A stretch of 64,000 nucleotides of DNA from an uncultured Alphaproteobacteria bacterium (GCA_944392255.1 CALXVY010000002.1:11106-75105), one strand, 5' to 3'; shown: positions 11,955 to 56,169, counted from the first letter of the stretch. Notes: generated by a model from the letters alone, not told the origin. Numbers and translations are program-made.

Positions 11955-12019
11955 TATTATTTTTTCCTTTTCTAATTGGTTGACAGCCTATCTTAAGTAA
12001 ACCGCCAACATTAAATTAA

Positions 12020-12743: not shown

Positions 12744-12753
12744 TTTTATAATC

Positions 12754-13134
12754 TCATTTCTTGAACCAATAACGCTCAAAAATGTCATAAAAGTCCGCAA
12801 CGGTTTTAATATTCTCGTAATCTTCATCTGAAACAGTTTTACCATATTTTTTTTCACAAGACATAATAAAATCTGTCATTAGCAAAGAATCCGCTCCTAA
12901 ATCATCTGTAAAAGAAGTTTCTTTTGGAATAACAGGTTTCTGGTAATCGAATTTCTTAACCACTAAGACCCCACCTGTTGGATAATAGCCTGATTCTACT
13001 CTAATTTTACAATACTTTTCAACACGTTCTCTGTCATAGCGACTGAAATAATCATAAATGAGTTCTTTAGCCTCTTTAATCATTTTAGGATTATAAGCTC
13101 TTTCCGGCTGCGACTTTTTCTCTAAATTTTCCAT
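12754..13134 (-). CDS. acyl-carrier-protein-like domain protein with N-terminal extension (about 127 aa from MENLEKK)
   Basis: C-terminal ...FTDDLGADSLLMTDFIMSCEKKYG... matches the ACP phosphopantetheine site (DLGADSL); about 60 aa of unknown N-terminal sequence; the longer ORF upstream is probably not translated. Confidence 0.5.
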   Translation of the reverse strand: MENLEKKSQPERAYNPKMIKEAKELIYDYFSRYDRERVEKYCKIRVESGYYPTGGVLVVKKFDYQKPVIPKETSFTDDLGADSLLMTDFIMSCEKKYGKTVSDEDYENIKTVADFYDIFERYWFKK

Positions 13135-13215
13135 AAAATAATATTTTTTAGAATTAATAATCAATTGAATTACCGCCAATTTAACCACAAATCATTCAAG
13201 AGTCAAACAAAAAAA

Positions 13216-13247
13216 AAGCATCTCACTTAGCTAAAAGTGAAATGCTT
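13216..13247. terminator. repeated terminator-like hairpin, copy 2
   Basis: identical 32-nt element AAGCATCTCACTTAGCTAAAAGTGAAATGCTT, preceded by AGAGTCAAACAAAAAAAA. Confidence 0.55.
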
Positions 13248-13256
13248 TTGTTATGA

Positions 13257-13694
13257 TTACAATCCCAATTTTTGCAAAACCAGAATCTGAACATCTTCGA
13301 CGGTTTCAACTTCTTCAAATTCTTCGTCATCAATCTGGATACCAAATTCTTTCTCCAAATGAATCATCAATTCAACTTTTTCTAGACTTTCATAGCCCAA
13401 ATCATCTTGCAAATTTTCTTCAAGTTTTAAATTCCAAGCATCTATCCCTACAAGATCACCGATATGTTTGTTTATTTTATCGACAACATCTTGGTGTAAC
13501 AAAGTCTTTTGAGGAGTTTTTTCCGCTTCAAGGCTTGAATTTGTTTTAAACAAAATTTCTGCCTCATCACATAAATTATCAGAAAATTGAGTTTTCAAAC
13601 TTTCAGGAAAATTAACTTCCAACTCTTGCTCCAACGCAGAAAACATATCTGCAACTTTTTGTTGGATTTTACGTTCTAATTGAGACTTTTTCAT
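13257..13694 (-). CDS. acyl-carrier-protein-like protein with N-terminal extension (about 145 aa from MKKSQLERK)
   Basis: C-terminal 75 aa align along their length to ACP (...IGDLVGIDAWNLKLEENLQDDLGYESLEKVELMIHLEKEFGIQIDDEE...); Ser retained at the attachment position. Confidence 0.55.
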   Translation of the reverse strand: MKKSQLERKIQQKVADMFSALEQELEVNFPESLKTQFSDNLCDEAEILFKTNSSLEAEKTPQKTLLHQDVVDKINKHIGDLVGIDAWNLKLEENLQDDLGYESLEKVELMIHLEKEFGIQIDDEEFEEVETVEDVQILVLQKLGL

Positions 13695-13770
13695 AAAATA
13701 ATGTTTTAAATTAATAATCATTTGAATTATTGGTACTTTAAGCTGGCGCTGATAAAGAGTCAACAACAAA

Positions 13771-13802
13771 AAGCATCTCACTTAGCCAAAAGTGAAATGC
13801 TT
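13771..13802. terminator. repeated terminator-like hairpin, copy 3 (one substitution in loop)
   Basis: AAGCATCTCACTTAGCCAAAAGTGAAATGCTT preceded by AAGAGTCAACAACAAAA. Confidence 0.5.
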
Positions 13803-13810
13803 TTTCATCA

Positions 13811-14116
13811 TCAATCAGCAGAACTCTTACGCTCATGAAGCGCAGTCAAAATTTTTCCAACTCTGGTATCAAGATATTCTGCTGTCCACCCGCATGATAC
13901 TCTTTCATAAACACAAACAGCATTCTCTTCAAAAAAATCAATTGCCTCATCAATCTTATTGGGAGGCATTGAAGCTGCAATTTTCTGAAGAGGTTTATTT
14001 CCATGTTGTTTCAGCCAACGAGAGACAATGACGTCTTTTCCCAAAAGCAAGGCAATTTTTTGAAAAAAATTTCTATCTTGCAAATGCATCACAAAAATGA
14101 ATTTTCCAATTTCCAT
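13811..14116 (-). CDS. hypothetical protein (101 aa), paralog A
   Basis: paralogous to the adjacent ORF (…NFFQKIALLLGKDVIVSRWLKQHGNKPLQKI vs …NWFEKIALFFGRDLIVSHWLKQYQGKTIEEI); no recognised domain. Confidence 0.5.
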   Translation of the reverse strand: MEIGKFIFVMHLQDRNFFQKIALLLGKDVIVSRWLKQHGNKPLQKIAASMPPNKIDEAIDFFEENAVCVYERVSCGWTAEYLDTRVGKILTALHERKSSAD

Positions 14117-14128
14117 AAATGCAAAATT

Positions 14129-14434
14129 TTATATTGTTTTAATGTCTTTTTCTAACTGCTTTCGACGTTGACGAATACAAACAAAACAAGTTCTGACTCT
14201 CACATCAATAAAAGCATTATCATTAACATAAGAAGCAACATAAGCTGCATTTCGGCCTAAAAACCCCACAGCTTGATTAAGTTGATTTTCATTCATGTTT
14301 GCAAAAATTTCTTCAATTGTTTTACCTTGATATTGTTTCAACCAATGAGAAACAATTAAATCTCTACCAAAAAACAATGCAATTTTTTCAAACCAATTTC
14401 TGTTTTCAATGTTTTGAATAGCAAATTTTTTCAT
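14129..14434 (-). CDS. hypothetical protein (101 aa), paralog B
   Basis: same length and about 40 percent identical to paralog A; 12-bp gap to paralog A suggests co-transcription. Confidence 0.5.
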   Translation of the reverse strand: MKKFAIQNIENRNWFEKIALFFGRDLIVSHWLKQYQGKTIEEIFANMNENQLNQAVGFLGRNAAYVASYVNDNAFIDVRVRTCFVCIRQRRKQLEKDIKTI

Positions 14435-14509
14435 AGCAAAATAATTAAGAATAAATAACTAATTTTCATAAAAAAAATAAAAAAGATTTCTTAAAGAGTC
14501 AAACAAAAA

Positions 14510-14535
14510 AAGCCGCCTCGATAATAAAGCGGCTT
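14510..14535 (-). terminator. terminator hairpin after nadE
   Basis: AAGCCGCCTCGATAATAAAGCGGCTT preceded by AAAGAGTCAAACAAAAAAA. Confidence 0.45.
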
Positions 14536-14553
14536 AAAATTGAGAGAACAAAA

Positions 14554-15333
14554 TCAGATTTTCAAAATCTCGGGCATTTGTTTGCGCTTAAACGCCATTT
14601 TATGATATTGCTTAATCACCCAAGCAACGATTTTGGCATCATGTCCCAGCGCCACAATCTCATCTTCTGTTTTCTGTTCATCGAGATACTGATGCAAAAT
14701 AGCATCCAAAACAGAATACGGCGGCAAAGAATCCTCATCTTTCTGCCCGTCACTGAGTTCAGCTGAAGGTGCGCGATTAATCACTTCTTCGGGGATAACA
14801 TAACCTTGCTGATTGCGCCAGCGCGCCAAATCAAAAATCAAAGTTTTATATAAATCACCAATCGGCAACAATCCGCCGCAGACATCACCATAAAGCGTGC
14901 AATATCCCATCGCCGCTTCCGACTTATTACCGCAAGCCAAAACCAAAGCGCCGTTCTGGTTGGAATAGGCCATCAAAATTTTACCGCGCTCTCGCGCTTG
15001 CAAGTTTTCCATAACCAAATTTTTCGGCTCTTGACCAAAGGCTTGAGTGAGAAATTGCTTTTGCGCAACAATAACCGGTTCAATATCCAAAATCTGATAA
15101 GCAAAGCCGTTCAAATCGGCAAGTTTTTGCGCAATCTGCAAGCTTAAATCCGAAGTATGTTTAGTTTTCATCATCAGACAAGATACATTTTCTTTGCCCA
15201 AAGCATCACAAGCCAGCACTGAAACCAAAGCAGAATCCATACCACCCGACAACCCCAAAATCACTTTTTTAAAACCATAACGCTGACAATAGTCTTGCAA
15301 ACCCTTTTTCAATTTGTTCCAAATCTTTTCCAT
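14554..15333 (-). CDS. nadE: NH3-dependent NAD+ synthetase
   Basis: 259 aa; PP-loop ...VILGLSGGMDSALV...; no glutaminase domain. Confidence 0.85.
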   Translation of the reverse strand: MEKIWNKLKKGLQDYCQRYGFKKVILGLSGGMDSALVSVLACDALGKENVSCLMMKTKHTSDLSLQIAQKLADLNGFAYQILDIEPVIVAQKQFLTQAFGQEPKNLVMENLQARERGKILMAYSNQNGALVLACGNKSEAAMGYCTLYGDVCGGLLPIGDLYKTLIFDLARWRNQQGYVIPEEVINRAPSAELSDGQKDEDSLPPYSVLDAILHQYLDEQKTEDEIVALGHDAKIVAWVIKQYHKMAFKRKQMPEILKI

Positions 15334-15337
15334 AGTC

Positions 15338-16816
15338 TTATCTCCCGAATTGATTTTGATAATGTTGAATCAAAGCTTGTTGTTTTTGATAAAGCGGCGC
15401 GTTCATACCCACACCGTAACGATGCGGATTGTGCAGACGTTTATATTCTTCCGGCAAAGCTTGCAAATTACGCATTGTGGCTTGCTGAATTTCGCTAAGC
15501 GGACGATTTTTGTGCTTTTCATCTACCTTACCGTTTTGTACCACATCTTGCAACAACAATTGCGCCTGCGTTCCAGCTTCAAAGTGCCTCGGCGCTAGGG
15601 TTTTATCTTGCAAATGATAAGATAGCAAAGGTTTAACTAAAACCCCATTTTGCAAATAATCCTCATCTTGAGAAACAACCACGTCACCATTATATTTCCC
15701 GTCTTGAAGCAAGCGGATGATATTAGTCTTTCCCGGGATGGAGGTTTTATCTCCCGCTACTTTGATTTTATCTGTACCTTCATAATTTTTGGTTTTATAA
15801 ACACAACCCAGCGCCGGCATATCATCGGCACGCACTAACTTGGTACCAAGCGCAAAACTGTCAATCGGTGCTTTTTGTACTTTGATTAAGTCTTCGATAA
15901 TGTATTCATCCAAATCATTTGAAATAATGATTTTGGTTTGCTTCATTCCGGCATCATCCAAAAGTTTGCGTGCTTGCTTACTCCAATAAGCCAAATCACC
16001 GGAATCAAGACGAATACCCTTGAGCGGAATTTTGGTTTCTTTGCTTGCTTTAATCGCGTTCAAAATACCTTGTCTGGTTTCATAAGTATCGGGAAGCAAA
16101 ATGCCGTCATAAGGATAGGTTTGCAAATAGGCTTTGAAAGCATCAACCTCATTTTCAAAAGACATAATCCAAGAATGCGCCATTGTCCCGACCGGCGGAA
16201 TATGATAAGTCTGTGCAGCTGCCACATTAGATGTTGCCACACATCCACCGACAAATGCCGCACGTGTTGGTGAAAAACCGCCCTGCTCCATCGCCCGACG
16301 TAAACCAAACTCCATCACCGGTCTTTTGATGCCGTCAGATTGCGCTGCATAAACCGCGCGTGCTGCTTTGGTAGCTACTGTATTTTGCGAGTTGAGAATA
16401 TTTAACAACGCCGCTTCCACCAATTCCACCTGCCAGTTTGGTCCACTGATACTATAAAGCGGCTCTCCAGCAAAAACGAGTTCTCCTTCCGGCACGGCTT
16501 TCACATCAACTTGCAATTTTTGACTCCTAAGTGCGGTTAAAAAATCTTTAGAAAAAAGCGGTTCGCCATTGCTGTTTTTTTGTGCTGCTAAATAGGAGAT
16601 ATCTTTATCGGTCACTTGCCAATTTTCCACCCACTCGAGAAATTCACCCAATCCGGCAGAAACGATATAACCGCAATCTTTGGGCATTTTTCTAAAAAAA
16701 GCCTCTGAGGTTTTATGCTCATTTTGCTTGCCGGCAGCAAACCATCCGCCGCTCATGGTCAAATGATAAAAATCGCACCACAACAAACTGCCTTCATTAA
16801 TCAAATTTTGTCTCAT
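15338..16816 (-). CDS. pncB: nicotinate phosphoribosyltransferase (long-form, eukaryote-type)
   Basis: 492 aa; blocks LLWCDFYHLTMSGGW, VKAVPEGELVFAGEPL, MEFGLRRA, GTMAHSWIMSF, IRLDSGDLAYW, LGCVYK align to the long-form NAPRT family, not to NAMPT. Confidence 0.8.
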   Translation of the reverse strand: MRQNLINEGSLLWCDFYHLTMSGGWFAAGKQNEHKTSEAFFRKMPKDCGYIVSAGLGEFLEWVENWQVTDKDISYLAAQKNSNGEPLFSKDFLTALRSQKLQVDVKAVPEGELVFAGEPLYSISGPNWQVELVEAALLNILNSQNTVATKAARAVYAAQSDGIKRPVMEFGLRRAMEQGGFSPTRAAFVGGCVATSNVAAAQTYHIPPVGTMAHSWIMSFENEVDAFKAYLQTYPYDGILLPDTYETRQGILNAIKASKETKIPLKGIRLDSGDLAYWSKQARKLLDDAGMKQTKIIISNDLDEYIIEDLIKVQKAPIDSFALGTKLVRADDMPALGCVYKTKNYEGTDKIKVAGDKTSIPGKTNIIRLLQDGKYNGDVVVSQDEDYLQNGVLVKPLLSYHLQDKTLAPRHFEAGTQAQLLLQDVVQNGKVDEKHKNRPLSEIQQATMRNLQALPEEYKRLHNPHRYGVGMNAPLYQKQQALIQHYQNQFGR

Positions 16817-16817
16817 C

Positions 16818-17441
16818 TTAAATCTCCTTTACCCCTTTAACCAAATTGAACTGACATTTTTTCTCATTCAATGCCATGCGAAAAAACTGCTTTGAAGTCA
16901 TCATCTTGAGATACCCCTTTTCAACTGCTTTTTGATAAGCCGGCTGTTGGATGATTTCGGGCATTTGTTGGTTTGCTCCCATGCACAAATCTTCCAGAAC
17001 CGTGACCTTAGCACCACGGCTCAAAAATCCGTTCATTGCTTGCTTCACACAAATATCGGAAAGCACGCCGCAAAGATAAACTTCTTTGCCTTTCCAATCT
17101 TGTTGCAATAAGGCATAAGTCTTTTCTTCGTTCCACAAATTGGTGGTCGATTTATAGAGATTTATAACAGGGATATTGTCCTTAAATTCGGCAGCCTTTT
17201 GCCAACCCCAAGTGCCGTAAATGGTATGAGGCGGAAAAGATTGTGCTTCTTTGGTTTCGGGATAAGTTTCAGCAAAATGTGTGTCCGCTGCATCAATAAT
17301 TTGCGAGAACATTCCTTTTTGCAAAGACTGGTTAAATTGTTGATGTCTTGCAATCAACTCGGGATTATTAATGGTGAGGTTACCGTTTTCGGCAACAAAA
17401 TCGTTCTGAAAATCTATGCGAACTAAAGTGCGTTCGTTCAT
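16818..17441 (-). CDS. pncA: nicotinamidase / isochorismatase-family cysteine hydrolase
   Basis: 207 aa; N-term LVRIDFQNDF and catalytic-Cys region LCGVLSDICV typical of PncA-like hydrolases; sits between the NMNAT and NAPRT genes. Confidence 0.65.
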   Translation of the reverse strand: MNERTLVRIDFQNDFVAENGNLTINNPELIARHQQFNQSLQKGMFSQIIDAADTHFAETYPETKEAQSFPPHTIYGTWGWQKAAEFKDNIPVINLYKSTTNLWNEEKTYALLQQDWKGKEVYLCGVLSDICVKQAMNGFLSRGAKVTVLEDLCMGANQQMPEIIQQPAYQKAVEKGYLKMMTSKQFFRMALNEKKCQFNLVKGVKEI

Positions 17442-17475
17442 TGTTTATACTCCTTAGGCTTATCAGGTTAATCAA

Positions 17476-17514
17476 GCGACCTCTCTCCCATAAGCCCTGC
17501 GGAAGACCAAGGTC
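17476..17514 (-). promoter_or_regulatory. GC-rich conserved motif, copy 1 (CCATAAGCCCTGCGGAAGACC core) in the nadM-pncA spacer
   Basis: second copy at 18198-18228 shares the core YCCATAAGCCCTKCGGAMGACC; stands out in an AT-rich region. Confidence 0.3.
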
Positions 17515-17527
17515 GATAAATAAAAAT

Positions 17528-18070
17528 TTAGATAATTGCTTTTCTTTTGTAAAAATGATCTTCAATCAACTGGTAATTTTCCGGATGAATAAAGTTTTTC
17601 CAGCGTTTATCGCCAAACTTAATCATATCGCGCACCATGGTACCGGTAACAAAGGGAAAATCCTCAGACGTGCGGTCAACATATTCAATATTTTGAAAAG
17701 CCTCTTTGAACCAATGCGCATCATAAGAACTACCGGCATAATAAACATCGGGACGTCCAAGTTGCGGCAAACTTTCGTTCATAAAGTCTAAAACATATTC
17801 TGCCCATTCAGCCGGATTGTTAATATCAAACAAACCAATGATTTTTAAGCGCGGATAATCAGGAGAATTACGATAGACATTTTGAATCATCTTTTTGCGC
17901 GTGGTGTAGTTGAGAGGGTTGCGCTCTGTTCCTTGTTCTTGAATAGAACCCAAGATGATGGTTACTTGTGCACATTCTTTAAGCATACGGTCAATCAAAC
18001 GGGCATGCCCAATGTGGAAAGGCTGCGCGCGCATAATACTTAAACCATGTTGATATTTATATTCAGACAT
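17528..18070 (-). CDS. nadM: nicotinamide/nicotinate mononucleotide adenylyltransferase, archaeal/NadM type
   Basis: 180 aa; nucleotidyltransferase motif IMRAQPFHIGHARLI (HxGH) and overall resemblance to archaeal NMNAT. Confidence 0.7.
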   Translation of the reverse strand: MSEYKYQHGLSIMRAQPFHIGHARLIDRMLKECAQVTIILGSIQEQGTERNPLNYTTRKKMIQNVYRNSPDYPRLKIIGLFDINNPAEWAEYVLDFMNESLPQLGRPDVYYAGSSYDAHWFKEAFQNIEYVDRTSEDFPFVTGTMVRDMIKFGDKRWKNFIHPENYQLIEDHFYKRKAII

Positions 18071-18197
18071 AAAAAAAACTCCTTATTTAAGGAGCCGACA
18101 TCAGAAAGATTTATATTTCATTTTAGAAACTGATAAATTTAGATAGCTTGTGCAAATAAATTTATCCATCTTTGAACTCGGCTCTGTTCTAACTCTG

Positions 18198-18228
18198 TCC
18201 CTCGTCCATAAGCCCTTCGGACGACCGG
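18198..18228 (-). promoter_or_regulatory. GC-rich conserved motif, copy 2, upstream of nadM
   Basis: TCCCTCGTCCATAAGCCCTTCGGACGACCGG; forms stem CGTCC/GGACG with loop ATAAGCCCTTC. Confidence 0.3.
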
Positions 18229-18359
18229 AACAATTTTTATAATAAAGATAAAAAATAAAATTGCAACAAAAAAGTCTTTTCAAAATACGCACTCGAAACT
18301 CTCCGCAAGGCACTTATAGAAACTCGATAATTGAGATGAGTAGAAGCAAAAATAGAAAA

Positions 18360-18401
18360 GCCGAAAATCCTAGTGTACATAAGCGTACATGAATTTTCGG
18401 C
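18360..18401. repeat. nested palindromic repeat, copy A
   Basis: GCCGAAAATCC-TAGTGTACATAAGCGTACATGA-ATTTTCGGC: conserved core TAGTGTACA..GTACATGAATT inside complementary outer arms. Confidence 0.6.
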
Positions 18402-18497
18402 TCTTTCTAATTTTTGCGATTAATCGCTAGAACAAAAGCGCCACAAGGCACTTTTCTAAAAGTTCAAGATTTGGAGATTATAACGCAAAAAACAAAG

Positions 18498-18540
18498 CGG
18501 TCGAAATTCTAGTGTACAAGAAGTACATGAATTTCGACCG
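18498..18540. repeat. nested palindromic repeat, copy B
   Basis: CGGTCGAAATTCTAGTGTACAAGAAGTACATGAATTTCGACCG, perfect outer 11-bp stem. Confidence 0.6.
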
Positions 18541-18585
18541 TTCTGTAGTTTTTTGCGCTAGAAGCCCAAATACTGAGCTTTTAGA

Positions 18586-19776
18586 CTATTTCAAGATTTT
18601 AGAAACCACACCAGCACCTACAGTGTGACCACCTTCACGAATAGCAAAACGAAGACCTTCGTTCATTGCAATCGGGTGAATCAATTTTGCTGTCATGCGA
18701 ATGTTATCGCCAGGCATTACCATTTCTGTACCTTCAGGCAATTCAATTGCACCGGTTACATCGGTGGTACGGAAATAGAATTGAGGACGATAGTTTGAGA
18801 AGAACGGAGTATGACGACCGCCTTCTTCTTTGGTCAAAATGTAGCATTCGCATGTGAAGTCTGTGTGCGGAGTAATGGTGCCAGGAGCTGCCAATACTTG
18901 TCCACGTTCAACTTCTTCTCTCTTGGTACCGCGGAGCAATACACCGATGTTATCGCCGGCTTCACCTTCATCCAACAATTTACGGAACATTTCAATACCG
19001 GTACATGTGGTTTTTTGTGTCGGTTTAATACCTACGATTTCGATATCATCACCTACGTGCAATACACCTCTTTCTACACGACCGGTTACAACTGTACCAC
19101 GACCAGAGATTGAGAATACGTCTTCAATCGGCATCAAGAACGGTTGATCTTTCGGACGTTCCGGTTGCGGAATGTAGCTGTCTACAGCTTTCATCAATTC
19201 TACGATTGAATCGTGACCAATTTTCGGATCGCCGTTTTCCAATACTGCCAATGCAGAACCTTTGATGATTGGGATTTCATCGCCTGGGAAGTCATATGAG
19301 CTCAACAAATCTCTGATTTCCATTTCAACCAAATCCAACAATTCTGGATCGTCTACTTGGTCTACTTTGTTCATGTATACTACCAATGCCGGCACACCTA
19401 CTTGACGAGCGAGCAAGATGTGTTCACGTGTTTGCGGCATCGGACCATCTGCTGCTGATACAACCAAGATTGCACCATCCATTTGAGCTGCACCGGTAAT
19501 CATGTTTTTAACATAGTCAGCGTGGCCCGGGCAGTCTACGTGTGCATAGTGACGATTCGGGGTTTCATATTCTACGTGTGAGGTGGAAATGGTAATACCG
19601 CGTGCTTTTTCTTCAGGAGCTTTATCAATTTGATCATATGCTGTGAAGCTTGCACCACCCTCTTCTGCCAATACTTTGGTAATTGCAGCTGTCAAGGTTG
19701 TTTTACCGTGGTCTACGTGACCAATCGTTCCAATGTTGCAGTGAGGCTTATTGCGCTCAAATTTCTCTTTTGCCAT
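18586..19776 (-). CDS. tuf: elongation factor Tu (complete copy)
   Basis: 396 aa; [15 protein letters not shown]..., DCPGHADY..., NKVD...; stop CTA at 18586-18588. Confidence 0.97.
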
Positions 19777-33895: not shown

Positions 33896-35128
33896 TTAAG
33901 CCATCTGTTGAGCATTCAATCGTTTTTTAAGAGCAATATATCGGTTCATATCAAACGATTGTATTCTTTCTTTGTTAACTGATTGTGGCGCAATTGAGCT
34001 TGTTTGTCTACCTCTAAGTTCATTTATCCTCTTAATAACATCAGATTTAGACTGAGATTGTATATTTTTCTGTAAAATTTCTTCGCTCATACTATAATCA
34101 GGAACAAAAGATTTGACCCCGAGCTTATACAAAATCTTATCGGGAACATCTTTGTCACGACGTCTATACTCGAGCACAGCCCCACAAACATTACGTCGGA
34201 TTTGTTCTTCTTCGGTGAAATACCCATGATTTTGAGAAGTATTAGCCACCTTAACCAAGTTCATCATTTCCATATGCTTAGCATAGGCCTCTGACAAGGC
34301 ATTATCAGGATGAATTCTATTAAGGAAGCGCAAATCATTAGCCCGACGCAACATATATTCTTGATAACGTTGCTTACGAAGCTGGTTAGCTTTATCCATC
34401 TCATCTACAGCAGCCATAGCAATCAAGGTTTGAGCCATCATCAAACTTGCTTTATATTCCATATCAGAATAAAGAGTTTTATTATCCTCTTGCTCAATCA
34501 TACGCTGATATTCTAAAGCCAAACGTTTTTCCTCTTCTTTGGCCTGACGTTCAGCCTCAGCTTCTTCGCGGCTTTTAGTTGAAGCAATAACCGCGCTGCG
34601 AAGTTGCTGAAGTTTAGCAAGTTTTAACTGCAAAAAATCAAGACGTTCTTTAGCTTTTGAAGAATTAGATGCGGCATACAAAGCCATATAGACACGCATT
34701 TCAGTTTCACGCTCATCCAAAGTCGACAAGAAATTTTCACGAAAATCTATATCGGCATCCGTTATATTGCCATCAGTCATATCATGAATGACTTTTCCTG
34801 CATCTTCAATCCAATAAAAATATTCATTCTGGGGAGCAACTTCATTTTCAATTGATTGGATGGAATTAGCCACAATAAAAGCAAAATCTTCCAAATTTTT
34901 ATCAAGAGGAAGGTTTTCTCCATCAACGACACGTTTTAATACTTCTTTAGCTTTTTCTTTTTCCGGACCTTTCAAATCGGGACGAGCACGCTCAACTCCT
35001 TTTTCAATAATGTCCATTTTTTTCTTTTCTTTTTCAGGATTTTTTCGAGTAAGCTCTGCTTTTGAGAGCTCTTTTTTATCTTTATCCTCGGAAGAAGAAA
35101 TGCCTCTAAGTTCCTTAATATCAACCAT
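33896..35128 (-). CDS. hypothetical highly charged coiled-coil protein (410 aa)
   Basis: K/E-rich N-terminus (KEKKKM, KEKAKE), central ...REEAEAERQAKEEEKRLALEYQRMIEQ...; no TM, signal peptide or known catalytic motif recognised. Confidence 0.5.
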   Translation of the reverse strand: MVDIKELRGISSSEDKDKKELSKAELTRKNPEKEKKKMDIIEKGVERARPDLKGPEKEKAKEVLKRVVDGENLPLDKNLEDFAFIVANSIQSIENEVAPQNEYFYWIEDAGKVIHDMTDGNITDADIDFRENFLSTLDERETEMRVYMALYAASNSSKAKERLDFLQLKLAKLQQLRSAVIASTKSREEAEAERQAKEEEKRLALEYQRMIEQEDNKTLYSDMEYKASLMMAQTLIAMAAVDEMDKANQLRKQRYQEYMLRRANDLRFLNRIHPDNALSEAYAKHMEMMNLVKVANTSQNHGYFTEEEQIRRNVCGAVLEYRRRDKDVPDKILYKLGVKSFVPDYSMSEEILQKNIQSQSKSDVIKRINELRGRQTSSIAPQSVNKERIQSFDMNRYIALKKRLNAQQMA

Positions 35129-40273: not shown

Positions 40274-40774
40274 ATGACTGCAGAATTAATAAAAAGATCA
40301 AGTCGGGGACGCACCCCGCAAGGAGAACCGAATCCGATTGACGTCCATGTAGGCAATCGCATTCGTTTAAGACGTACCCTTTTAGGCTTAAGTCAAGAAA
40401 AGCTAGCATCTATGCTGGGCTTGACTTTTCAACAGGTACAAAAATATGAAAGAGGCATGAACCGTGTTGGTGCCAGCCGCTTATGGGATATTGGAAAAGT
40501 TTTGGAAGTACCTATCGGTTTCTTTTATGAAGACATGGATAAAGAAGTTGCCAACCAAAGTCCTCGCATGTTTAGCATTCCAGATAGTCACCCAATGGAA
40601 TTAGCTGAAGAAGAAGAGCATGCAGATTTAGACCCAATGAATCGTCAAGAAACAATTGAACTGGTAAAAGCATATTATAAAATACCTAACCGCAAAGCGG
40701 CTAAACATATGTTTGATTTAATCATTGCCATGTCCAAAACAACTTATAATAATGATGACGATGATGAGAAATAG
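40274..40774 (+). CDS. XRE-family helix-turn-helix transcriptional regulator with acidic C-terminus
   Basis: ...RIRLRRTLLGLSQEKLASMLGLTFQQVQKYERGMNRV...; C-terminal ...TTYNNDDDDEK. Confidence 0.7.
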   Translation: MTAELIKRSSRGRTPQGEPNPIDVHVGNRIRLRRTLLGLSQEKLASMLGLTFQQVQKYERGMNRVGASRLWDIGKVLEVPIGFFYEDMDKEVANQSPRMFSIPDSHPMELAEEEEHADLDPMNRQETIELVKAYYKIPNRKAAKHMFDLIIAMSKTTYNNDDDDEK

Positions 40775-40791
40775 TCTTTAGAAAAACAAAT

Positions 40792-40825
40792 AAAAAAAAG
40801 CTGGTTTTTACCAGCTTTTTTTATT
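40792..40825 (+). terminator. intrinsic terminator
   Basis: AAGCTGGTTTTTACCAGCTT followed by TTTTTTT. Confidence 0.6.
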
Positions 40826-41671
40826 ATGATAACAAAGATTGTTTTAACTATAGAGAATATTAATATGCTAATAACAGAAAAAACCAATCTCAAACAAGGC
40901 AATATAAATATACAAATTGAACCCAAAGCCACAGTATATACACCGGACAATGGTCATAATAAGCCCAAATTTTATGGCAGACGCAAAGGCAGAACCATAA
41001 GAAAAGCAAAATCTACATTATTAGAAGCTTTCTTACCGGAAATCAAAATCACCGAACAAAGTATATTTGATAAAGAAAAACTATTTGGCAAACCTGTTGA
41101 AAAGATAGCCTTAGAAATAGGATTTGGTGATGGACAACATTTAGCCGGACAAGCAAAAAATCATCCTGACACAGGTTTTATTGGTGCAGAAGTTTTTCAA
41201 AATGGCGTGGCTAATTTACTCACGCTGATTACAGGCATCAAAGAAGGTAGTCATTTACCCGAAAAAATCAATTTAGAAGAGGGTCGTGTTGACAATATCA
41301 GAGTCTTTGATGATGATATCCGACTTTTATTTAAACAGATTCCAGATTCTTTTTTAGATAAAGTCTTCATTCTCTTTCCTGATCCTTGGCCAAAAAAAAG
41401 ACATGCACACCGCCGTTTTGTTAACCCCGATAATTTAACAGAAATAGCTCGTATTATGAAAAAAGGCGGAATTTTACGCATTGCAACCGACCATAAAATT
41501 TACAAAGGTTGGGCTTTAAGACAAGTCAAAGAAAACGGCAATTTTATCTGGACGGCAAAATGCGGAAATGATTGGAAAAAAGAACCCGCAGATTGGGTGC
41601 AAACCAAATATCAACTCAAAGCTCTGCGAGAAGGACGACGCCCCGTATTTCTCGATTTTGAAAAAATTTAA
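40826..41671 (+). CDS. trmB: tRNA (guanine46-N7)-methyltransferase
   Basis: ...LFPDPWPKKRHAHRRF...; SAM-binding ...LEIGFGDGQHL...; true start may be the internal Met at 40865. Confidence 0.85.
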   Translation: MITKIVLTIENINMLITEKTNLKQGNINIQIEPKATVYTPDNGHNKPKFYGRRKGRTIRKAKSTLLEAFLPEIKITEQSIFDKEKLFGKPVEKIALEIGFGDGQHLAGQAKNHPDTGFIGAEVFQNGVANLLTLITGIKEGSHLPEKINLEEGRVDNIRVFDDDIRLLFKQIPDSFLDKVFILFPDPWPKKRHAHRRFVNPDNLTEIARIMKKGGILRIATDHKIYKGWALRQVKENGNFIWTAKCGNDWKKEPADWVQTKYQLKALREGRRPVFLDFEKI

Positions 41672-41678
41672 AAATGCA

Positions 41679-41709
41679 AAGGACACTTTATACAAGTGTC
41701 CTTTTTTTA
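41679..41709. terminator. bidirectional terminator between trmB and the convergent membrane-protein gene
   Basis: AAGGACACTTTATACAAGTGTCCTT followed by TTTTTTT. Confidence 0.55.
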
Positions 41710-41720
41710 ATTATCATACC

Positions 41721-42068
41721 TCAGAAATTTCTGTTGACCCATTCCCGTAAAACATTCCAACGTTTTTCATTCAAAGAAGAACTTTGGGCTTCTTGCTTGT
41801 TGGAAGCAAACCAACTTTTTTCAGAAGCATTCTGGCATTCCAAATCGATATCTTCTCGAATTGTTGGCGGGAAAGAGCTTTTATACTTGTTTATCAATAA
41901 CTTTAAAGCCTCAACTTGTAAGTCCAGCGCATCGGTATCTTTCCTAAGAGAAGCAAATCTTTGTTTTATTTTCTTTAAATTAAGCCACAGAAGATATGCA
42001 TAAATAGCAACAATTAGTAACAAAATCACAAGAAAAAAAATGATAACAGAGTAATCAAAAGTATCCAT
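41721..42068 (-). CDS. hypothetical membrane-anchored protein (about 115 aa from MDTFDYS...)
   Basis: one N-terminal TM helix (VIIFFLVILLLIVAIYAYLLWL) then a charged coiled-coil-like segment; the ORF-track upstream extension is probably not coding. Confidence 0.4.
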   Translation of the reverse strand: MDTFDYSVIIFFLVILLLIVAIYAYLLWLNLKKIKQRFASLRKDTDALDLQVEALKLLINKYKSSFPPTIREDIDLECQNASEKSWFASNKQEAQSSSLNEKRWNVLREWVNRNF

Positions 42069-42225
42069 ACTTAAAAATATTAAATTAAACAATAATAAAT
42101 AAACTTTTTTTACTATATAAACAATGATTTTCTTGTCAACACCAAAATTTAGACAAAAAATATTTACGAACAACAAAAAATGGTGTATGATACATTCATA
42201 TATAAACAACAAGAAGGACAATGAC

Positions 42226-44265
42226 ATGGCAAAAAAAAAGCAAAAACGCAAAGTTGCTAAAGAGTTTGAAGTACATTCTTCTGAATTTCCTCAAAAACAA
42301 GTAAAGAAACAAAAAACCCCTACTTTAACCTTGGAAGATCGCGTCAATAATGAATTTGATGAAATGGCTGTTTCTGTAGCCTATGGCAAAAACGAAGGAG
42401 AAAAACTCAAAGCCATCCGCTCTTTCAATACCTTTATCGACAACAATGTTCCTGCCGAAGAGAAAGACAAAATCAAAGCTCTGGTTGAAGAAAGATTAAA
42501 AGATAACGACTTTATCTATGGTAGTGAATTTATCGATTTAACTCCTCTCAAAGAATATACTGATCGTTTGTTTGAAGAACGCAAAGTTGCTAAAGAGTTT
42601 GAACCTCATTCTTCTAAAAAGGTTAAAGAAACAAAAAAATCAAAGAAAAAAGAAACATCGGAAAATCTTGCTGATGTCGTTAAATCAGTTAAAGATAATG
42701 CCAATAATACGCTTGGCGGAATTTTGGGCGGATTAGCAGAAAATGCGGCTAAAAGAGAAGAACATAAAATGCCTCGTCCAAATCCAAATAAAGAAGCAGA
42801 AAAAGCTCTTCACCAAGCCTTACTCGATGGCATTGCTAATGAAGAAATCAAAAACATCAAAGGTTACAGCAATGATGATTTGAAAAAAATCTTAGAATAT
42901 CATGACAAACTTCTTTATGCCGATGATGGTAACGGTACGGCTTTAGAAAGTTTATATGATAACAGCATTGCCGATTTGAAAAAATTTGCCGAAGGTAAAG
43001 TATCTATTGATAATGATAGCTACGAAACAATGATGCAATTCATCAAAACTTTTGGTACTAACTCTAAAGGGCAATTACTTCCGGAAGGCAAAGCTGCTTA
43101 TGATAAATTGATGAATTTAATGGCAGAACAACAAAAACAAAAAATTCTTGCCAACAAAGAAAAATATCAAGCTCATGCTGAAATCGTCAAGAATGTTCAA
43201 AATCATGCCAATAATACATTAGCTGGAATTTTGGGCGGACTAGCTGCCAATGCGGCTAAAAGAGAAAAGGCTGCTACAAACAGCGCCACCTCAACAACTA
43301 CGCCGAAAACAACTAAAGAAGAAGCTCCGACAGAATTTGCTATCGGCGACGAAGAAGCTAAAGACACAACAAAAGTAATCTTGAAGGAAAAACAACATCA
43401 GGAACCCCAAAAAAACGAAAACAAAACATATATTCCGGTAACTCCAACTTCAGCGACAACCAATAAAAATTCATTTACACCAGAAAACACAACCAATGAA
43501 ACCCCCAAACCGCAACCGGAGGAAAAGAAAAAAGGTTTCTGGGGCAAGACAAAAGATTGGCTTAAGGATAAATGGAAAAAAATTGCCGCTATTACTGCAT
43601 TAGCTGCTGCCGCTTTGCTTTTACCTAAAAGTTGCGCCGGCAATGGTAATAATGAAAATAAAAACCAAGACAGAGATATACCGGAAAAAACCACAGTCAT
43701 TCCGTCAGATTCTATTGCTAAGCCAACTCCTGCAGATACTTTACAGTTGACCCCGCAAGACTTAAGCAATGGTTTCTATCTGGAACGTTCTGCCGGCTTC
43801 AAGGGTGAACAAGAAGGTATCAGTTTCAAAGATGCTGAAAAAGCCAATAAACAAGACCTCTTGACCATCAAACGTCTAATGGCTCAAAAGAAACTGGATA
43901 TAAACAAATTCAAACGTCATACAACCTCACAAAATAAAGAACCGATTACGATAACGGAAATTGCATATAAAATGCGTGTTGTAATGCAAAACTTCCCCGG
44001 TTCTAAAATTGCAAAAAGTATGGAAAATATCTTTTCCGGCAAAGTTAGCGAACGTGATCAAAACAACCTCTATGGAGCTTTTACGCATATCAATGATTAT
44101 GGTCAATTAATTGACCGTAATGGCAAACCAATAAACACCATAGATATGGAAAAAGAAATCAGTGCTGAACGTTTTGGAAAAGGTAGTGAAGAATATGGCA
44201 CGGAAGGCACCGATAATAACTTTATTCAAGTTTTGAAAAAGCATAAAGATATCTTAAGTAAATAA
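42226..44265 (+). CDS. hypothetical bitopic membrane protein (679 aa) with internal sequence repeats
   Basis: duplicated blocks RKVAKEFE(V/P)HSS and ANNTL(G/A)GILGGLA(E/A)NAAKRE(E/K); single TM helix IAAITALAAAALLLP at about residue 470; K/T/P-rich linker; no known domain recognised. Confidence 0.55.
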   Translation: MAKKKQKRKVAKEFEVHSSEFPQKQVKKQKTPTLTLEDRVNNEFDEMAVSVAYGKNEGEKLKAIRSFNTFIDNNVPAEEKDKIKALVEERLKDNDFIYGSEFIDLTPLKEYTDRLFEERKVAKEFEPHSSKKVKETKKSKKKETSENLADVVKSVKDNANNTLGGILGGLAENAAKREEHKMPRPNPNKEAEKALHQALLDGIANEEIKNIKGYSNDDLKKILEYHDKLLYADDGNGTALESLYDNSIADLKKFAEGKVSIDNDSYETMMQFIKTFGTNSKGQLLPEGKAAYDKLMNLMAEQQKQKILANKEKYQAHAEIVKNVQNHANNTLAGILGGLAANAAKREKAATNSATSTTTPKTTKEEAPTEFAIGDEEAKDTTKVILKEKQHQEPQKNENKTYIPVTPTSATTNKNSFTPENTTNETPKPQPEEKKKGFWGKTKDWLKDKWKKIAAITALAAAALLLPKSCAGNGNNENKNQDRDIPEKTTVIPSDSIAKPTPADTLQLTPQDLSNGFYLERSAGFKGEQEGISFKDAEKANKQDLLTIKRLMAQKKLDINKFKRHTTSQNKEPITITEIAYKMRVVMQNFPGSKIAKSMENIFSGKVSERDQNNLYGAFTHINDYGQLIDRNGKPINTIDMEKEISAERFGKGSEEYGTEGTDNNFIQVLKKHKDILSK

Positions 44266-44274
44266 TCTTAAGAT

Positions 44275-44309
44275 AAAAAAATATCACCGATTTTCGGTGA
44301 TATTTTTTT
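44275..44309. terminator. bidirectional intrinsic terminator
   Basis: ATATCACCGATTTTCGGTGATAT flanked by an A-run and a T-run. Confidence 0.6.
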
Positions 44310-44323
44310 ATCTTATTTTACAT

Positions 44324-44848
44324 TTATTGCGAAACGATAGTCGGTTGAATATTCGGTTCTGTTACTGTTGAAACATCATTTATCGGATAAGCCTGAACAT
44401 CAATGATATCATTTCCCGATTGATAAAGTTCATTTTCAATACGTGTACTCGGTTGAGGTAAAGCCAATTCTCCAGGTTGCAAAATACCTTGCTGACTTTC
44501 TTGTTGAATAGGTTTAATTTGCGGCGTTGCCGGCATAGGATTATTAGAGCTCTCAGAGGGCTTTTCTTGAGAAGGAAGATTGTTTTCCGGAGCCAAATTT
44601 TGAGAGGATTGAGAAACATCTTCTTGCGTATCTAAAGGACTTCCCAACGGATTAGGGGCATCTGCACTTTGTTCTACAAAGTCCGAATTTACACCACCGC
44701 TCGCATTAGCTGCCGCACCAAAAACTTCTGTCGGTGTAGAATTAATCTGCATATCTTCTTGCATCGTTACAGTATCTGTTATGTTTTGAGCCAAAGCACT
44801 TGTACTCAGCAAAACCAAAGCAGATGTACATAATAAAATTTTTTTCAT
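44324..44848 (-). CDS. hypothetical secreted low-complexity (S/Q/P/N-rich) protein
   Basis: signal peptide MKKILLCTSALVLLSTSALAQ; remainder compositionally biased. Confidence 0.5.
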   Translation of the reverse strand: MKKILLCTSALVLLSTSALAQNITDTVTMQEDMQINSTPTEVFGAAANASGGVNSDFVEQSADAPNPLGSPLDTQEDVSQSSQNLAPENNLPSQEKPSESSNNPMPATPQIKPIQQESQQGILQPGELALPQPSTRIENELYQSGNDIIDVQAYPINDVSTVTEPNIQPTIVSQ

Positions 44849-44974
44849 TTTCCCTCCTAAATCAAATTGTTCTTATATAAGATAATCCTGATTTAAGTTG
44901 TTTCAAGCAAAAAACAAATTATACAAAAAAGATTCCCAATGACTTTGAGAATCTTTTATAAAATTAAACATAGA

Positions 44975-45433
44975 TTAAAAACTTGCTTTGCAAAGTAAAA
45001 ATGAACACATTTCGCGACGCTTTTGCGCCAACAATAGCAAGCGCCACAATATAGCATAAAACATCTGCATATTAAGCTCATTCATACTACAATTTTCAAA
45101 CTTTTTAAGCTTATAGCAATCATACTTTTGTTTTGCAAAATCAATCAAACTGGAAACATCATAAAAAGACAATAAATCTACGATATCACTGTCTCTGGAA
45201 GAACCCCCAACTTTCAATTGTTCAATAATGTTTTTAACGATACATGATGGAAAAATATAAATATTCCATGATGCATCAAATTTTTCCAACTGATTAATTC
45301 GCCTCTGTCTCTGTAAATTTTCACACAATCGCCAAAATAATTTCTTTTTCATAAAAATAACATTTATAATTAAAACCTTTTCAAAAGTATAAAGAAAAAT
45401 AAAATCAAAACAAGAAAAAAAATTAAACAACAA
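44975..45433 (-). CDS. hypothetical protein (126-152 aa)
   Basis: ORF immediately downstream of rpoC on the same strand; likely start MKKKLFWRL...; no motif recognised. Confidence 0.35.
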   Translation of the reverse strand: MLFNFFSCFDFIFLYTFEKVLIINVIFMKKKLFWRLCENLQRQRRINQLEKFDASWNIYIFPSCIVKNIIEQLKVGGSSRDSDIVDLLSFYDVSSLIDFAKQKYDCYKLKKFENCSMNELNMQMFYAILWRLLLLAQKRREMCSFLLCKASF

Positions 45434-45461
45434 AATATCCCTTATTATATTTTCTCAAGAC

Positions 45462-45489
45462 AAAAAAAGCCTCCTGAAAACAGGAGGCT
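45462..45489 (-). terminator. intrinsic terminator after rpoC
   Basis: AGCCTCCTGAAAACAGGAGGCT preceded by an A-run on plus strand (a T-run on the minus transcript). Confidence 0.6.
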
Positions 45490-45511
45490 TTTTCTTTCAG
45501 CTTAGAAAAAC

Positions 45512-54858: not shown

Positions 54859-56169
54859 TTATAAACTATAAGAATCTTTTTTGTTTAAAATCATCTTTTC
54901 GGTGGGTGTCAACTCTTTCACGTCAGACTTAACAACAAATTTTTTGGCAACTTTTTTAGGCACTGAACGTCCAGATAAAATCCTTAACAAATTCACAGCA
55001 TCTTTGCTCTGATTCCCTGGCATTTTTTCACTTATATCTTTGGCGCTATCAGGTGTCATACCAGTATAATACAAAGTCAAATCATCTGCCTTCTTTTGAA
55101 CTTCCGGAGATAATGGGACAATATTTTCAGAAAGATATTTTGAAAAATTTTCAACACTTATACCTTTTTGTTTCAAAATCTCATTATCTTTAAGACCATC
55201 AAAAATTAAATCAATTCTTTTAGCAAATTCTTTGTCGTTACCAATAGCCAAACTTGCAGCATCATATTTATCACACTTTGTTTCCATAGAGCCCACTATC
55301 TGATTAGAATATATAGACTGATAATTATTTTGCCACATCTGGCAAACTCCTTGTACCATTTGCTTATTAAAATCATTTTTATTCATCTTTTCTTTTTGAA
55401 AAAGCAAATCTTTATAAAAAGCAAAATTTTTAAACTCATTTTTTTCAAAAAGCTGTAATGCTTCTTGTTGTGGCACGCCTTGCTTAATCTTATCTTGATA
55501 AGCCTTGTCTAGCAACAAAAGCTCAGCCATCTTAGAAGATATTTCATCATATTGATTGAGCATTCCATATTGAGCAACAGACAATCCCGGAGCATAAATA
55601 TTATTTTTATCATTTGTCATATGCTGTACTTCATGGGCTAAAAGAACATTATTCTCAAGTGTATTGACATCATTATAGTTACTCAAAACCTCTTTCACAT
55701 GCTGTACTTTCTTATTCTGTTCATCTAAAGACAAATGTGCATAATTTTGTTCAACATAAGCTTTAATATCTTCATCATTCTCGGTTTGCACATAATTCAT
55801 AGTTACAGTTTTTTCAGAAAAATCATAACTTCCAACGAGTTTATTATCAGCAAATTCATTAAAAGGAATAGTATCCATTTTCACAGAAAAATCCGTTGCA
55901 AAAGCCTCTTTCTGCTCATCATAATAAGACTTCAAATCTTCTTTAACATCACTATAAATATTTCCATGGACAGGCTGCCCATTTATTGAAGTATAGATAT
56001 TATCTCCTTCTAAAACCTCTTGAATAACAGCCTGTTCTATCTTATCTTGCTTTTGTTCTTCTATTTTGGGCTCTGTTTGAGCATAAGCCACTTGCGAAGA
56101 CAAAGCCATACCCACAACAGTTGCCCCGTTTTGTTTCTTAAAAAAATCCTTCAGCTTATCCCAAACCAT
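54859..56169 (-). CDS. hypothetical protein with HExxH motif and possible N-terminal signal peptide (436 aa)
   Basis: ...NNVLLAHEVQHMTND... zincin-like HExxH; N-term MVWDKLKDFFKKQNGATVVGMALSSQVAYAQ hydrophobic stretch ending in AYA. Confidence 0.5.
   Translation of the reverse strand: MVWDKLKDFFKKQNGATVVGMALSSQVAYAQTEPKIEEQKQDKIEQAVIQEVLEGDNIYTSINGQPVHGNIYSDVKEDLKSYYDEQKEAFATDFSVKMDTIPFNEFADNKLVGSYDFSEKTVTMNYVQTENDEDIKAYVEQNYAHLSLDEQNKKVQHVKEVLSNYNDVNTLENNVLLAHEVQHMTNDKNNIYAPGLSVAQYGMLNQYDEISSKMAELLLLDKAYQDKIKQGVPQQEALQLFEKNEFKNFAFYKDLLFQKEKMNKNDFNKQMVQGVCQMWQNNYQSIYSNQIVGSMETKCDKYDAASLAIGNDKEFAKRIDLIFDGLKDNEILKQKGISVENFSKYLSENIVPLSPEVQKKADDLTLYYTGMTPDSAKDISEKMPGNQSKDAVNLLRILSGRSVPKKVAKKFVVKSDVKELTPTEKMILNKKDSYSL

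Follow-up and report, generated by a model that had tools for sequence, protein, structure and literature searches.

Orphan genes between trmB and rpoC of an uncultured Alphaproteobacteria bacterium: a conserved candidate envelope trio and an independent inserted gene

Introduction

Bitopic tethers such as ZipA, FtsN, TonB and RodZ are the described proteins closest in plan to the largest product of the locus studied here, a group of four orphan genes (orf1 to orf4) that lies between trmB and the 3' end of rpoC in an uncultured Alphaproteobacteria bacterium. The locus occupies positions 41,721 to 45,433 of a 64,000-nucleotide stretch of DNA (GCA_944392255.1, CALXVY010000002.1:11106-75105), which we call the window and from whose first letter all window coordinates are counted. 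Like these tethers, the orf2 product combines a single transmembrane (TM) segment with long low-complexity linkers rich in Pro, Thr, Asn and Gln, and it shares with them small globular end domains, which in such proteins face one side of the inner membrane or both. It differs from them in lacking similarity of sequence or fold, in having folded domains on what are predicted to be both sides of the membrane, and in an invariant juxtamembrane Cys.

The smaller orf1 product recalls two other families. FtsB and FtsL (DivIC) are likewise small, with an N-terminal TM segment and a leucine-zipper-like coiled coil, and the best hidden Markov model (HMM) match of orf1 is to FtsL_Actino (E 1e-4); this match is below cut-off, however, the predicted topology is the opposite one and the locus has no division-cluster context. 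PspB, as is predicted for orf1, joins a small N-out TM segment to a cytoplasmic helix, and the amphipathic GxxGGLA motif of orf2 resembles the first helix of the PspC domain, but the scores of orf1 and orf2 are all sub-threshold, the spacing is wrong for PspC and a PspA partner is missing.

Two more systems come into view through relatives of orf2. Tandem VirB6 paralogues with large extensions are a trait of the Rickettsiales type IV secretion system (T4SS; PMC8035066), and in a likeness to Rickettsiales RvhB6 (VirB6/TrbL) a relative of one orf2 module, module B, lies in the C-terminal extension of a TrbL/VirB6-like protein within a tandem array of three; orf2 itself has one TM segment instead of a polytopic membrane part, no TrbL match and no adjoining T4SS gene. 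The lyase domain of the LanKC/LanL type is homologous to the OspF/SpvC effector phosphothreonine lyases, with catalytic Lys and His in a K-x-H motif (PMC2843593). Three orf2 relatives (P0098, P0099 and P0104) join a lyase-type domain of this kind to module B and to a shared plan of K-rich segment, TM segment, Cys and C-terminal domain, whereas orf2 has no lyase domain.

Our reading of the locus, to which we assign a probability of about 0.45, is that orf1, orf2 and orf3 make up an envelope trio in which orf2 would act as a trans-envelope tether or scaffold, and that orf4 is an unrelated gene inserted beside them. The trio is limited to a clade of uncultured, mostly gut-derived Alphaproteobacteria.

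Results

Four transcriptionally independent genes

The interval is flanked by the conserved plus-strand unit miaB-phoH-ybeY-lnt-HTH-trmB (HTH, helix-turn-helix regulator) and by the minus-strand end of rpoBC, in a window with a GC content of 38%. Four open reading frames (ORFs) are present where the initial annotation had placed them, and public assemblies call them, without names, at 115, 679, 174 and 125 amino acids (aa). The strictly alternating orientation ascribed to them was not confirmed, the observed order being - + - -:

41721-42068, minus strand: orf1, 115-aa predicted single-pass membrane protein (ORF; public gene calls)
42226-44265, plus strand: orf2, 679-aa predicted bitopic (N-in) membrane protein with three helical modules and disordered linkers (ORF; orthologue alignment, start MAKK)
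44324-44848, minus strand: orf3, 174-aa predicted exported protein with a signal peptide (ORF; 66 homologues, 38-100% identity)
44975-45352, minus strand: orf4, 125-aa Cys-rich protein with no TM segment or signal peptide, GC 31% (public gene calls)

Longer readings of three of these genes were rejected as upstream over-extensions: 176 aa for orf1, whose orthologue alignment starts at MDTF (115 aa in public calls), 713 aa for orf2, whose orthologues start MAKK or MAKT (679 aa), and 152 aa for orf4, whose homologue alignment starts MKKK or MKRK (125 aa).

The transcription signals that serve orf1 to orf3 are the following:

41678-41704, both strands: bidirectional intrinsic terminator common to trmB (+) and orf1 (-) (terminator scan; -13.9 and -15.5 kcal/mol by strand, z -4.7 and -5.1)
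42069-42225, both strands: divergent orf1/orf2 promoter region (sigma-70-like matches)
44270-44314, both strands: bidirectional intrinsic terminator common to the convergent orf2 and orf3 (22-bp stem, -27.2 kcal/mol on both strands, z -9.7 and -9.0)

With the two hairpins near orf4 that are described below, four hairpins in the region qualify as intrinsic terminators, with z of -4.1 to -9.7 against shuffled sequence and a T-run after each, and the strong bidirectional terminators that had been noted between the genes do fold on both strands (41678-41704 and 44270-44314, z -4.7 to -9.7). An Rfam scan of the region gave only sub-threshold terminator look-alikes. Between orf1 and orf2 the top sigma-70-like match is TTGACA-16-TATAGT on the minus strand (42139->42112), and the plus strand carries two 9/12 matches (42133-42161 and 42163-42191); AAGGA stands 7-8 nt ahead of the orf2 ATG, and AGGAGGG, a strong ribosome-binding site, ahead of the orf3 start. 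The four ORFs are real genes, transcriptionally independent units with clear terminators.

Against Pfam, NCBIfam and PADLOC the four window proteins gave nothing above threshold, and PHROGs returned only weak matches to unannotated families (best orf1, E 1.5e-4). The statement that they fall in no recognisable family therefore stands: no curated family is matched above threshold by any of the four.

Modular anatomy and predicted topology of orf2

By hydropathy, orf2 has a single hydrophobic segment (residues 453-466) and no N-terminal signal, and it contains two pairs of repeats, which bears out its earlier description as a 679-aa bitopic protein with duplicated blocks. The charges flanking the TM segment are +6 on the N side, in the KKKGFWGKTKDWLKDKWKK motif, and 0 on the C side, and from these we predict a bitopic inner-membrane protein with its N-terminus in and its C-terminus out. 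An AlphaFold2 (AF2) model made with 22 orthologues has an overall predicted local distance difference test score (pLDDT) of 56; it comprises three confident all-helical modules with disorder between them, and sets the TM helix at 438-461. Cys470, 4 residues past the hydrophobic core, is invariant in 22 of 22 orthologues. The orthologues number 23 in all (41-95% identity), and not one is annotated. Along the gene the parts are:

42322-42585, plus strand: module A, aa 33-120, helical (pLDDT ~80)
42646-42759, plus strand: duplicated block copy 1, Gly/Ala-rich amphipathic motif NANNTLGGILGGLAENAAKRE (direct repeat family D1)
42790-43161, plus strand: module B, aa 189-312, the most conserved module (mean pairwise identity 0.75; pLDDT ~76 over 212-310)
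43153-43266, plus strand: duplicated block copy 2, amphipathic motif NANNTLAGILGGLAANAAKRE (76% identical to copy 1)
43516-43641, plus strand: Lys-rich segment KKKGFWGKTKDWLKDKWKK, TM segment (aa 453-466) and Cys470 (43633-43635) (hydropathy; orthologue alignment)
43741-44262, plus strand: module C, aa 506-679, predicted periplasmic helical domain (pLDDT 82-92 over aa 541-630; 47 invariant columns)

The first repeat pair is a duplicated 44-nt DNA block (42242-42285 and 42575-42618, 89% identity) that flanks module A, and the spacing of the two copies, 333 nt, is exactly one module A unit. Such direct repeats could be substrates for unequal crossing-over. Module A occurs once in the window and in the related loci L001 and L006, twice in L003, L004 and L005, and at least three times in L002. 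The second pair, the blocks at 42646-42759 and 43153-43266, encodes the Gly/Ala-rich motif NANNTL(A/G)GILGGLA(A/E)NAAKRE, of which orthologues carry 1-3 copies.

An internal lipoprotein signal was considered for orf2 and rejected. An n-region, an h-region and a Cys are all present, but there is no canonical lipobox L-[ASTVI]-[GAS]-C: residues -3 to -1 of the Cys read PKS, LKT, LKN, MRG, AKS or QK across the family, with K/R/N/Q where a small neutral residue is required, and the lipoprotein-like segment is internal (residue 470), not N-terminal. A sequence-profile search of the PDB with alignments of orf2, orf3 and module B gave nothing meaningful, and Foldseek with the orf2 AF2 model found no match at E <= 0.001 in PDB or among the BFVD viral structures.

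orf1 and weak likenesses to division and stress proteins

The sole strong hydrophobic segment of orf1, by hydropathy, spans residues 8-29. An unbroken a/d heptad pattern read from the sequence follows over residues 31-62 (L31-I34-F38-L41-T45-L48-V52-L55-I59-Y62), and it fits the coiled coil that had been proposed for this one-TM protein. The TM segment is flanked by charges of -2 on the N side and +5 on the C side, with the same sign in L003, L015 and L016; on the strength of this bias we predict an N-out/C-in topology and a cytoplasmic coiled coil. The loci L001, L003, L004, L015 and L016 each have a homologue and L005 has a weak one; those of L015 and L016 align over their full length (E 3e-13 and 7e-6).

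Weak profile matches of orf1, to DivIC (E 6e-3) and PspB (E 0.02) besides FtsL_Actino, bring up the idea of a divergent membrane-stress or division module, in which orf1 would be PspB-like or FtsB/FtsL-like and orf2 a PspC-like sensor. PspB has an N-out/C-in topology, as predicted for orf1, and in 3 of the 22 orthologues the orf2 motif NNTLAGILGGLAANAAK matches the PspC profile over positions 4-21 of its 58 (best E 7e-4); this short motif was all that a Pfam scan of the orf2 orthologues for consistent weak matches brought up. The scores are nevertheless far under their cut-offs, at 22 versus 55 bits for FtsL_Actino, 13.6 versus 42.45 for ftsL_broad, 16.8 versus 28.9 for DivIC, 15.3 versus 51.7 for PspB (TIGR02976) and, at best, 19.8 versus 25 for PspC, to which the window protein has no match. 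The matches cover the TM segment or a short motif only, more than 100 residues separate the PspC-like motif from the TM segment, whereas in a PspC domain the amphipathic helix leads straight into the TM segment, no pspA-like gene is nearby and the locus stands outside the dcw/division context. An FtsL or FtsB protein would have to be N-in/C-out with a periplasmic coiled coil, and the charges of orf1 predict the opposite by the positive-inside rule. We rejected both the FtsL/FtsB and the PspB assignment of orf1, as well as a PspC domain in orf2, and regard a stress or division module as most improbable.

orf3, an exported protein with a near-invariant C-terminus

The N-terminus of orf3 consists of MKK, a hydrophobic core and ALA|Q, and the composition of the protein is 11.5% S, 10.9% Q and 9.8% P, which agrees with the initial annotation's secreted S/Q/P-rich protein with a signal peptide. 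A conserved segment, PT.V.G.A...GG.....VEQ.....NPLG.P., comes after the signal peptide and is followed by a variable linker of 25-41 residues and then by the near-invariant LPQPS.KIENELYQSGNDIIDVQAYPI.DVSTVTEPNIQPTIV. Among the 66 homologues the mean pairwise identity is 0.84 over the C-terminal 45 aa and 0.16 in the S/Q/P linker. An AF2 model (pLDDT 59) has two conserved beta-hairpins, at residues 40-58 and 138-153, and is otherwise disordered. Taken with the model, this profile looks like that of a protein acting by partner binding. We rejected orf3 as a lipoprotein: there is no Cys at +1 (ALA|Q), Cys7 is a non-conserved residue of the signal peptide itself, and LPAM_1 gives an E of 0.16.

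An envelope or secreted topology, as had been suggested from composition, is upheld in this way for orf1 to orf3, although a surface location is not upheld for orf2, which is predicted to sit in the inner membrane.

Gene order and phyletic spread

The related loci show four arrangements, in which > and < give the direction of each gene:

trmB> <orf1 orf2> <orf3 (<orf4) <rpoC: window, L001, L003, L004, L012, L013
trmB> <orf3 orf2> <rpoC: L006, L014
trmB> <orf1 <orf3 orf2>: L015, L016, and L005 with a weak orf1 match (E 1.2e-4)
orf3 alone, tail-to-tail with trmB: L007-L010, more distant

From these arrangements, with L007-L010 included, the adjacency of orf3 and trmB is the oldest feature of the locus. 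The orf2 relatives come throughout from sources labelled uncultured Alphaproteobacteria bacterium or uncultured proteobacterium, one of them the isolate UMGS1426, and a search of the literature on the host clade yielded 16S survey papers only.

How far gene order argues for a shared function has to be set against the reading that the genes have no functional link and that lineage-specific genes with nothing in common have gathered and been reshuffled at a permissive site between convergent operons. In its favour, a promoter-like site and a terminator serve each gene separately, the phyletic spread decreases from orf3 through orf2 and orf1 to orf4, the gene order has changed, and the locus has taken up orf4 and other genes. 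Yet orf3 adjoins orf2 in all of the orf2-bearing loci examined, in spite of rearrangement and of divergence down to ~42% identity, and orf1 is found again beside orf2/orf3 in two separated clades. We find the reading without a functional link unlikely, and take the synteny as moderate, not decisive, evidence for a functional link of the trio.

Purifying selection on orf1 to orf3

In comparisons with L001, L003 and L004, the ratio of nonsynonymous to synonymous divergence (dN/dS) is 0.09-0.12 for orf1, 0.10-0.15 for orf2 and 0.15-0.23 for orf3; for phoH, ybeY, lnt, HTH, trmB and full-length rpoC the same comparisons give 0.01-0.08. Values of dS for orf1 to orf3 run from 0.7 to 2.5, with synonymous divergence of about 1 or higher. 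The amino-acid identity of orf2 is 75-85%, against 78% for the adjoining membrane enzyme Lnt, so that orf2 diverges no faster. Within orf2, mean pairwise identity is 0.56 in module A, 0.75 in B and 0.62 in C, and 0.2-0.3 in the linkers, which vary in length. The genes orf1 to orf3 are thus conserved lineage-specific genes under purifying selection, handed down vertically at the locus in divergent metagenome-assembled relatives as distant as 41-48% identity.

These numbers bear on the idea, put forward in the initial annotation, that the products of the locus are hypervariable antigens of the surface or of host interaction. Several observations do lean toward it: the linkers vary in length and composition, module A ranges from 1 to at least 3 copies, orf3 has the highest dN/dS of the region, orf4 is variably present with alleles 34% identical, and a ~1-kb tract of orf1 and the 5' part of orf2 seems to have been exchanged recently with the L001 lineage. 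However, a dN/dS of 0.09-0.23, far below 1, means purifying selection, and the expectation of hypervariability fails with it; what varies between strains is limited to the disordered linkers and the number of module copies, whereas conservation is strong in the folded modules and at the C-terminus of orf3. Moreover, the predicted locations are the inner membrane for orf2 and the cytoplasm for the orf1 domain, and Pfam and NCBIfam scans found no outer-membrane anchor, autotransporter or adhesin repeat. The selection analysis largely refutes the antigen idea, and we think it very unlikely.

The exchanged tract covers ~1 kb (41580-42580) that is 99-100% identical to L001 within flanking DNA of 70-90% identity; it reaches from the end of trmB across orf1 and the divergent promoter into orf2, of which it includes the first ~350 nt. 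In it the dS of orf1 against L001 is 0.03, as compared with ~0.7 for its neighbours. The tract looks like recent homologous recombination between lineages.

A wider orf2 superfamily and a possible tie to secretion

A full HMM search with orf2 over 1.84 billion representative proteins returned only 29 matches. As judged from these sequences, orf2 is clearly part of a wider modular superfamily with shuffled modules. Seven proteins (P0095, P0097, P0100, P0106, P0107, P0108 and P0113) and the product of a second gene adjoining orf2 in L016 have the same plan: cytoplasmic helical modules that include B, a Lys-rich 'KKKGFW/F..K.KDW.K+.WKK' segment, a TM segment, a Cys and a polar linker, ending in C-terminal domains of at least four unrelated types. 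The Cys after the TM segment is kept in 10 of the 12 TM-bearing distant paralogues. Two short relatives, P0093 and P0096, carry module C and have no TM segment. P0098, P0099 and P0104 place module B behind an N-terminal domain that matches Pfam RamC_N above cut-off and also the lyase region of class III/IV lanthionine synthetases, with the motif GWKFHIH (K-x-H).

Module B also reaches into VirB6-like proteins. P0091 (1344 aa) contains it twice, at 57% and 46% identity to that of the window and with the 57% copy at its extreme C-terminus. On a 570-kb metagenome contig (L011) its gene comes third in a tandem row of three TrbL/VirB6-like genes, where its neighbours match TrbL at E 2.5e-8 (above cut-off) and at 25.0 bits (just under the 25.9 cut-off). 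P0114 joins module B to a weak TrbL match.

From here follows the main alternative to a tether, namely that orf2 and its paralogues are secretion-linked, as cargo, adaptor or accessory of a VirB6-containing type IV apparatus, with module B serving in docking or delivery and with a role toward host or target cells. Module duplication and shuffling are typical of effector repertoires. The two module B copies of P0091, within a tandem TrbL/VirB6-like trio that is followed by a protein with M23 and VgrG3_C-like domains, point the same way, as do the module B and weak TrbL match of P0114, the union of module B with a RamC_N or LanKC/LanL lyase-type domain homologous to the OspF effector lyases (PMC2843593), and the precedent of tandem extended VirB6 paralogues in Rickettsiales (PMC8035066). 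A link to host or target cells is hinted at only indirectly by this sharing of module B between VirB6-like and OspF/LanL-lyase-domain proteins. Against a secretion role, orf2 is single-copy, syntenic, vertically inherited and under purifying selection, which suits a core part of the envelope better than an effector. T4SS genes are absent both from the 64-kb window and from the DNA flanking each orf2 locus: a search for virB, virD4 and trb genes, which covered the window ORFs scanned with Pfam and the genes called next to orf2 loci, met only housekeeping genes (Lpt, RpoN, FolD, NAPRTase, PhoH, YbeY, Lnt, TrmB, RpoBC). P0091 itself has no Pfam TrbL match, its array in L011 has no adjacent virB3 or virB4, and for orf2 no BID or other known translocation domain was matched and tblastn found nothing in 72,556 plasmids. 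Altogether we consider a secretion role unlikely. As a TrbL/VirB6 subunit proper orf2 was rejected, with no TrbL (PF04610) match, a single hydrophobic segment and only module B in common.

The superfamily can also be read as one of previously undescribed modular 'two-sided' membrane proteins, in which an internal cassette (Lys-rich amphipathic helix, TM segment, invariant Cys and polar tether) would export, and possibly lipid-anchor or disulfide-link, a swappable C-terminal domain, while the cytoplasmic parts (module B, module A repeats, OspF-type lyase domains) would couple to a VirB6-type apparatus. We rate this as quite improbable; if it is true, the orf2 superfamily would form a new class of membrane effectors or adaptors that are processed or linked to secretion.

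Some surroundings of these relatives deserve recording. In L011 (Ga0209694_1000005, 7853-18970) the TrbL/VirB6-like trio is followed by a 1223-aa Peptidase_M23 and VgrG3_C-like protein and a double-HTH regulator, and the array adjoins an apparent rRNA operon. In L016 (6210-9270) the orf2 orthologue is followed by the 654-aa bitopic module B paralogue, with a different type of C-terminal domain, and then by a 341-aa protein with a Phage_lysozyme domain. P0101 is a 1155-aa subtilase (Peptidase_S8) with a signal peptide and seven near-perfect tandem repeats of ~90 aa that are distantly related to module A. In the window itself, just upstream of the pre-rpoB region, a 436-aa orphan ORF (54859-56169, minus strand, GC 0.32) with an HEVQH (HExxH-like) motif and no Pfam match at E <= 1e-5 begins with MVWDKLKDFFKKQ, a hydrophobic stretch and AYA|Q, which resembles the Lys-rich 'W.K.KDW.K' motif ahead of the orf2 TM segment.

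orf4, an insertion at the rpoC terminator

The fourth gene has a history of its own, as the features around it show:

44927-44957, minus strand: orf4 terminator, hairpin and U-run, at the left edge of the insertion (-12.8 kcal/mol, z -4.1)
44931-45456, no strand assigned: 526-bp strain-variable insertion with orf4 and its own promoter-like region (DNA comparison with relatives)
45462-45495, minus strand: rpoC intrinsic terminator, between the rpoC stop and orf4 (-24.5 kcal/mol, then U7, z -5.2)

The 526-bp insertion is absent from L001, L002 and L003, and in L004 the same site holds a different insert of 624 bp, whose ORF is the one divergent homologue of orf4 (34% identity). The two share conserved termini (MK+KLFW... 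and ...RREMC..L...SF) and promoter-like upstream DNA. Three extra GC-rich hairpins lie between orf3 and the orf4 homologue in L004 (9013-9200), and the window insert has none of them. The rpoC terminator at 45462-45495 is conserved in all relatives, those without orf4 included, and the orf4 hairpin aligns with the rpoC terminator of the orf4-less relatives. It had been proposed that orf4 lies directly downstream of rpoC before its terminator, but in the direction of transcription rpoC's own terminator precedes orf4.

Searches of orf4 against Pfam, NCBIfam, PADLOC and PHROGs gave no match to defence, toxin-antitoxin or phage families, and it has no relative in 72,556 plasmids (tblastn) or in IMG/VR. 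orf4 is an accessory gene that varies between strains, was inserted at the rpoC terminator and is independent of orf1 to orf3, and we propose that its product is cytoplasmic and unrelated to the trio. The four genes can no longer be taken as one block: orf1 to orf3 form a conserved neighbourhood, and orf4 is a separate strain-variable insertion.

Neighbouring genes

Other ORFs of the window encode NAPRTase, a KpsF-like SIS/CBS protein, LptC, LptA, RpoN, a histidine kinase and FolD; by this gene content the organism is a diderm with a lipopolysaccharide pathway. A 410-aa Lys/Glu-rich ORF (33896-35128, minus strand), apparently helical and with no Pfam match at E <= 1e-5, is another lineage-specific orphan. 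In L006, L007-L010 and L014-L016, metK stands between the HTH regulator and trmB; it is absent there from L001, L003, L004 and the window, where the corresponding spot is 40775-40864, between HTH (40274-40774) and trmB. Similarly, corC/tlyC lies between ybeY and lnt in L009 and L010 and is absent there from the window. Both may have been lost or relocated in the window clade.

Discussion

In the arrangement that we favour, ~450 residues of orf2 would lie in the cytoplasm, with modules A and B and the Gly/Ala-rich amphipathic segments carried on a disordered tether of ~90 residues. Next would come a Lys-rich helix beside the membrane, one TM segment and the invariant Cys, and then a ~40-residue linker bearing the 170-residue helical module C in the periplasm. 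Built in this way, orf2 would be a flexible tether or scaffold across the envelope. The modules on its cytoplasmic side may engage the membrane-anchored cytoplasmic coiled coil of orf1, and its periplasmic domain may engage the exported, largely disordered orf3 by way of the near-invariant C-terminal beta-hairpin. We hold with moderate to low confidence that orf2 is a two-sided inner-membrane tether with the orf1 coiled coil and exported orf3 as its likeliest partners; that the trio forms a complex, and what role the complex plays, we infer.

Several points weigh against a tethered trio. The physical interaction among the orf1, orf2 and orf3 products is itself something that we infer, and the topologies come solely from hydropathy and the positive-inside rule. 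orf3 adjoins trmB with neither orf2 nor orf1 in L007-L010, and hence does not depend on orf2; orf1 is missing from the locus in L006 and L014; and in the window the trio never forms one operon. The TM-less P0093 and P0096 carry module C, which is therefore not obligatorily periplasmic. The common location of the genes could be that of a permissive 'parking' site between convergent operons.

For the organism, orf1 to orf3 are constrained envelope components of a poorly known clade, from families absent from Pfam, NCBIfam and PDB, and the idea of a hypervariable-antigen locus is corrected. Orphan envelope proteins in an uncultured lineage are not surprising in themselves. The modular superfamily is a useful lead: several new domain families are defined here, as candidates for database entry, and the orf2 superfamily, with its shuffled modules, its cassette of K-rich segment, TM segment and Cys, and its swappable outer domains, offers testable leads on envelope organisation or cell interaction.

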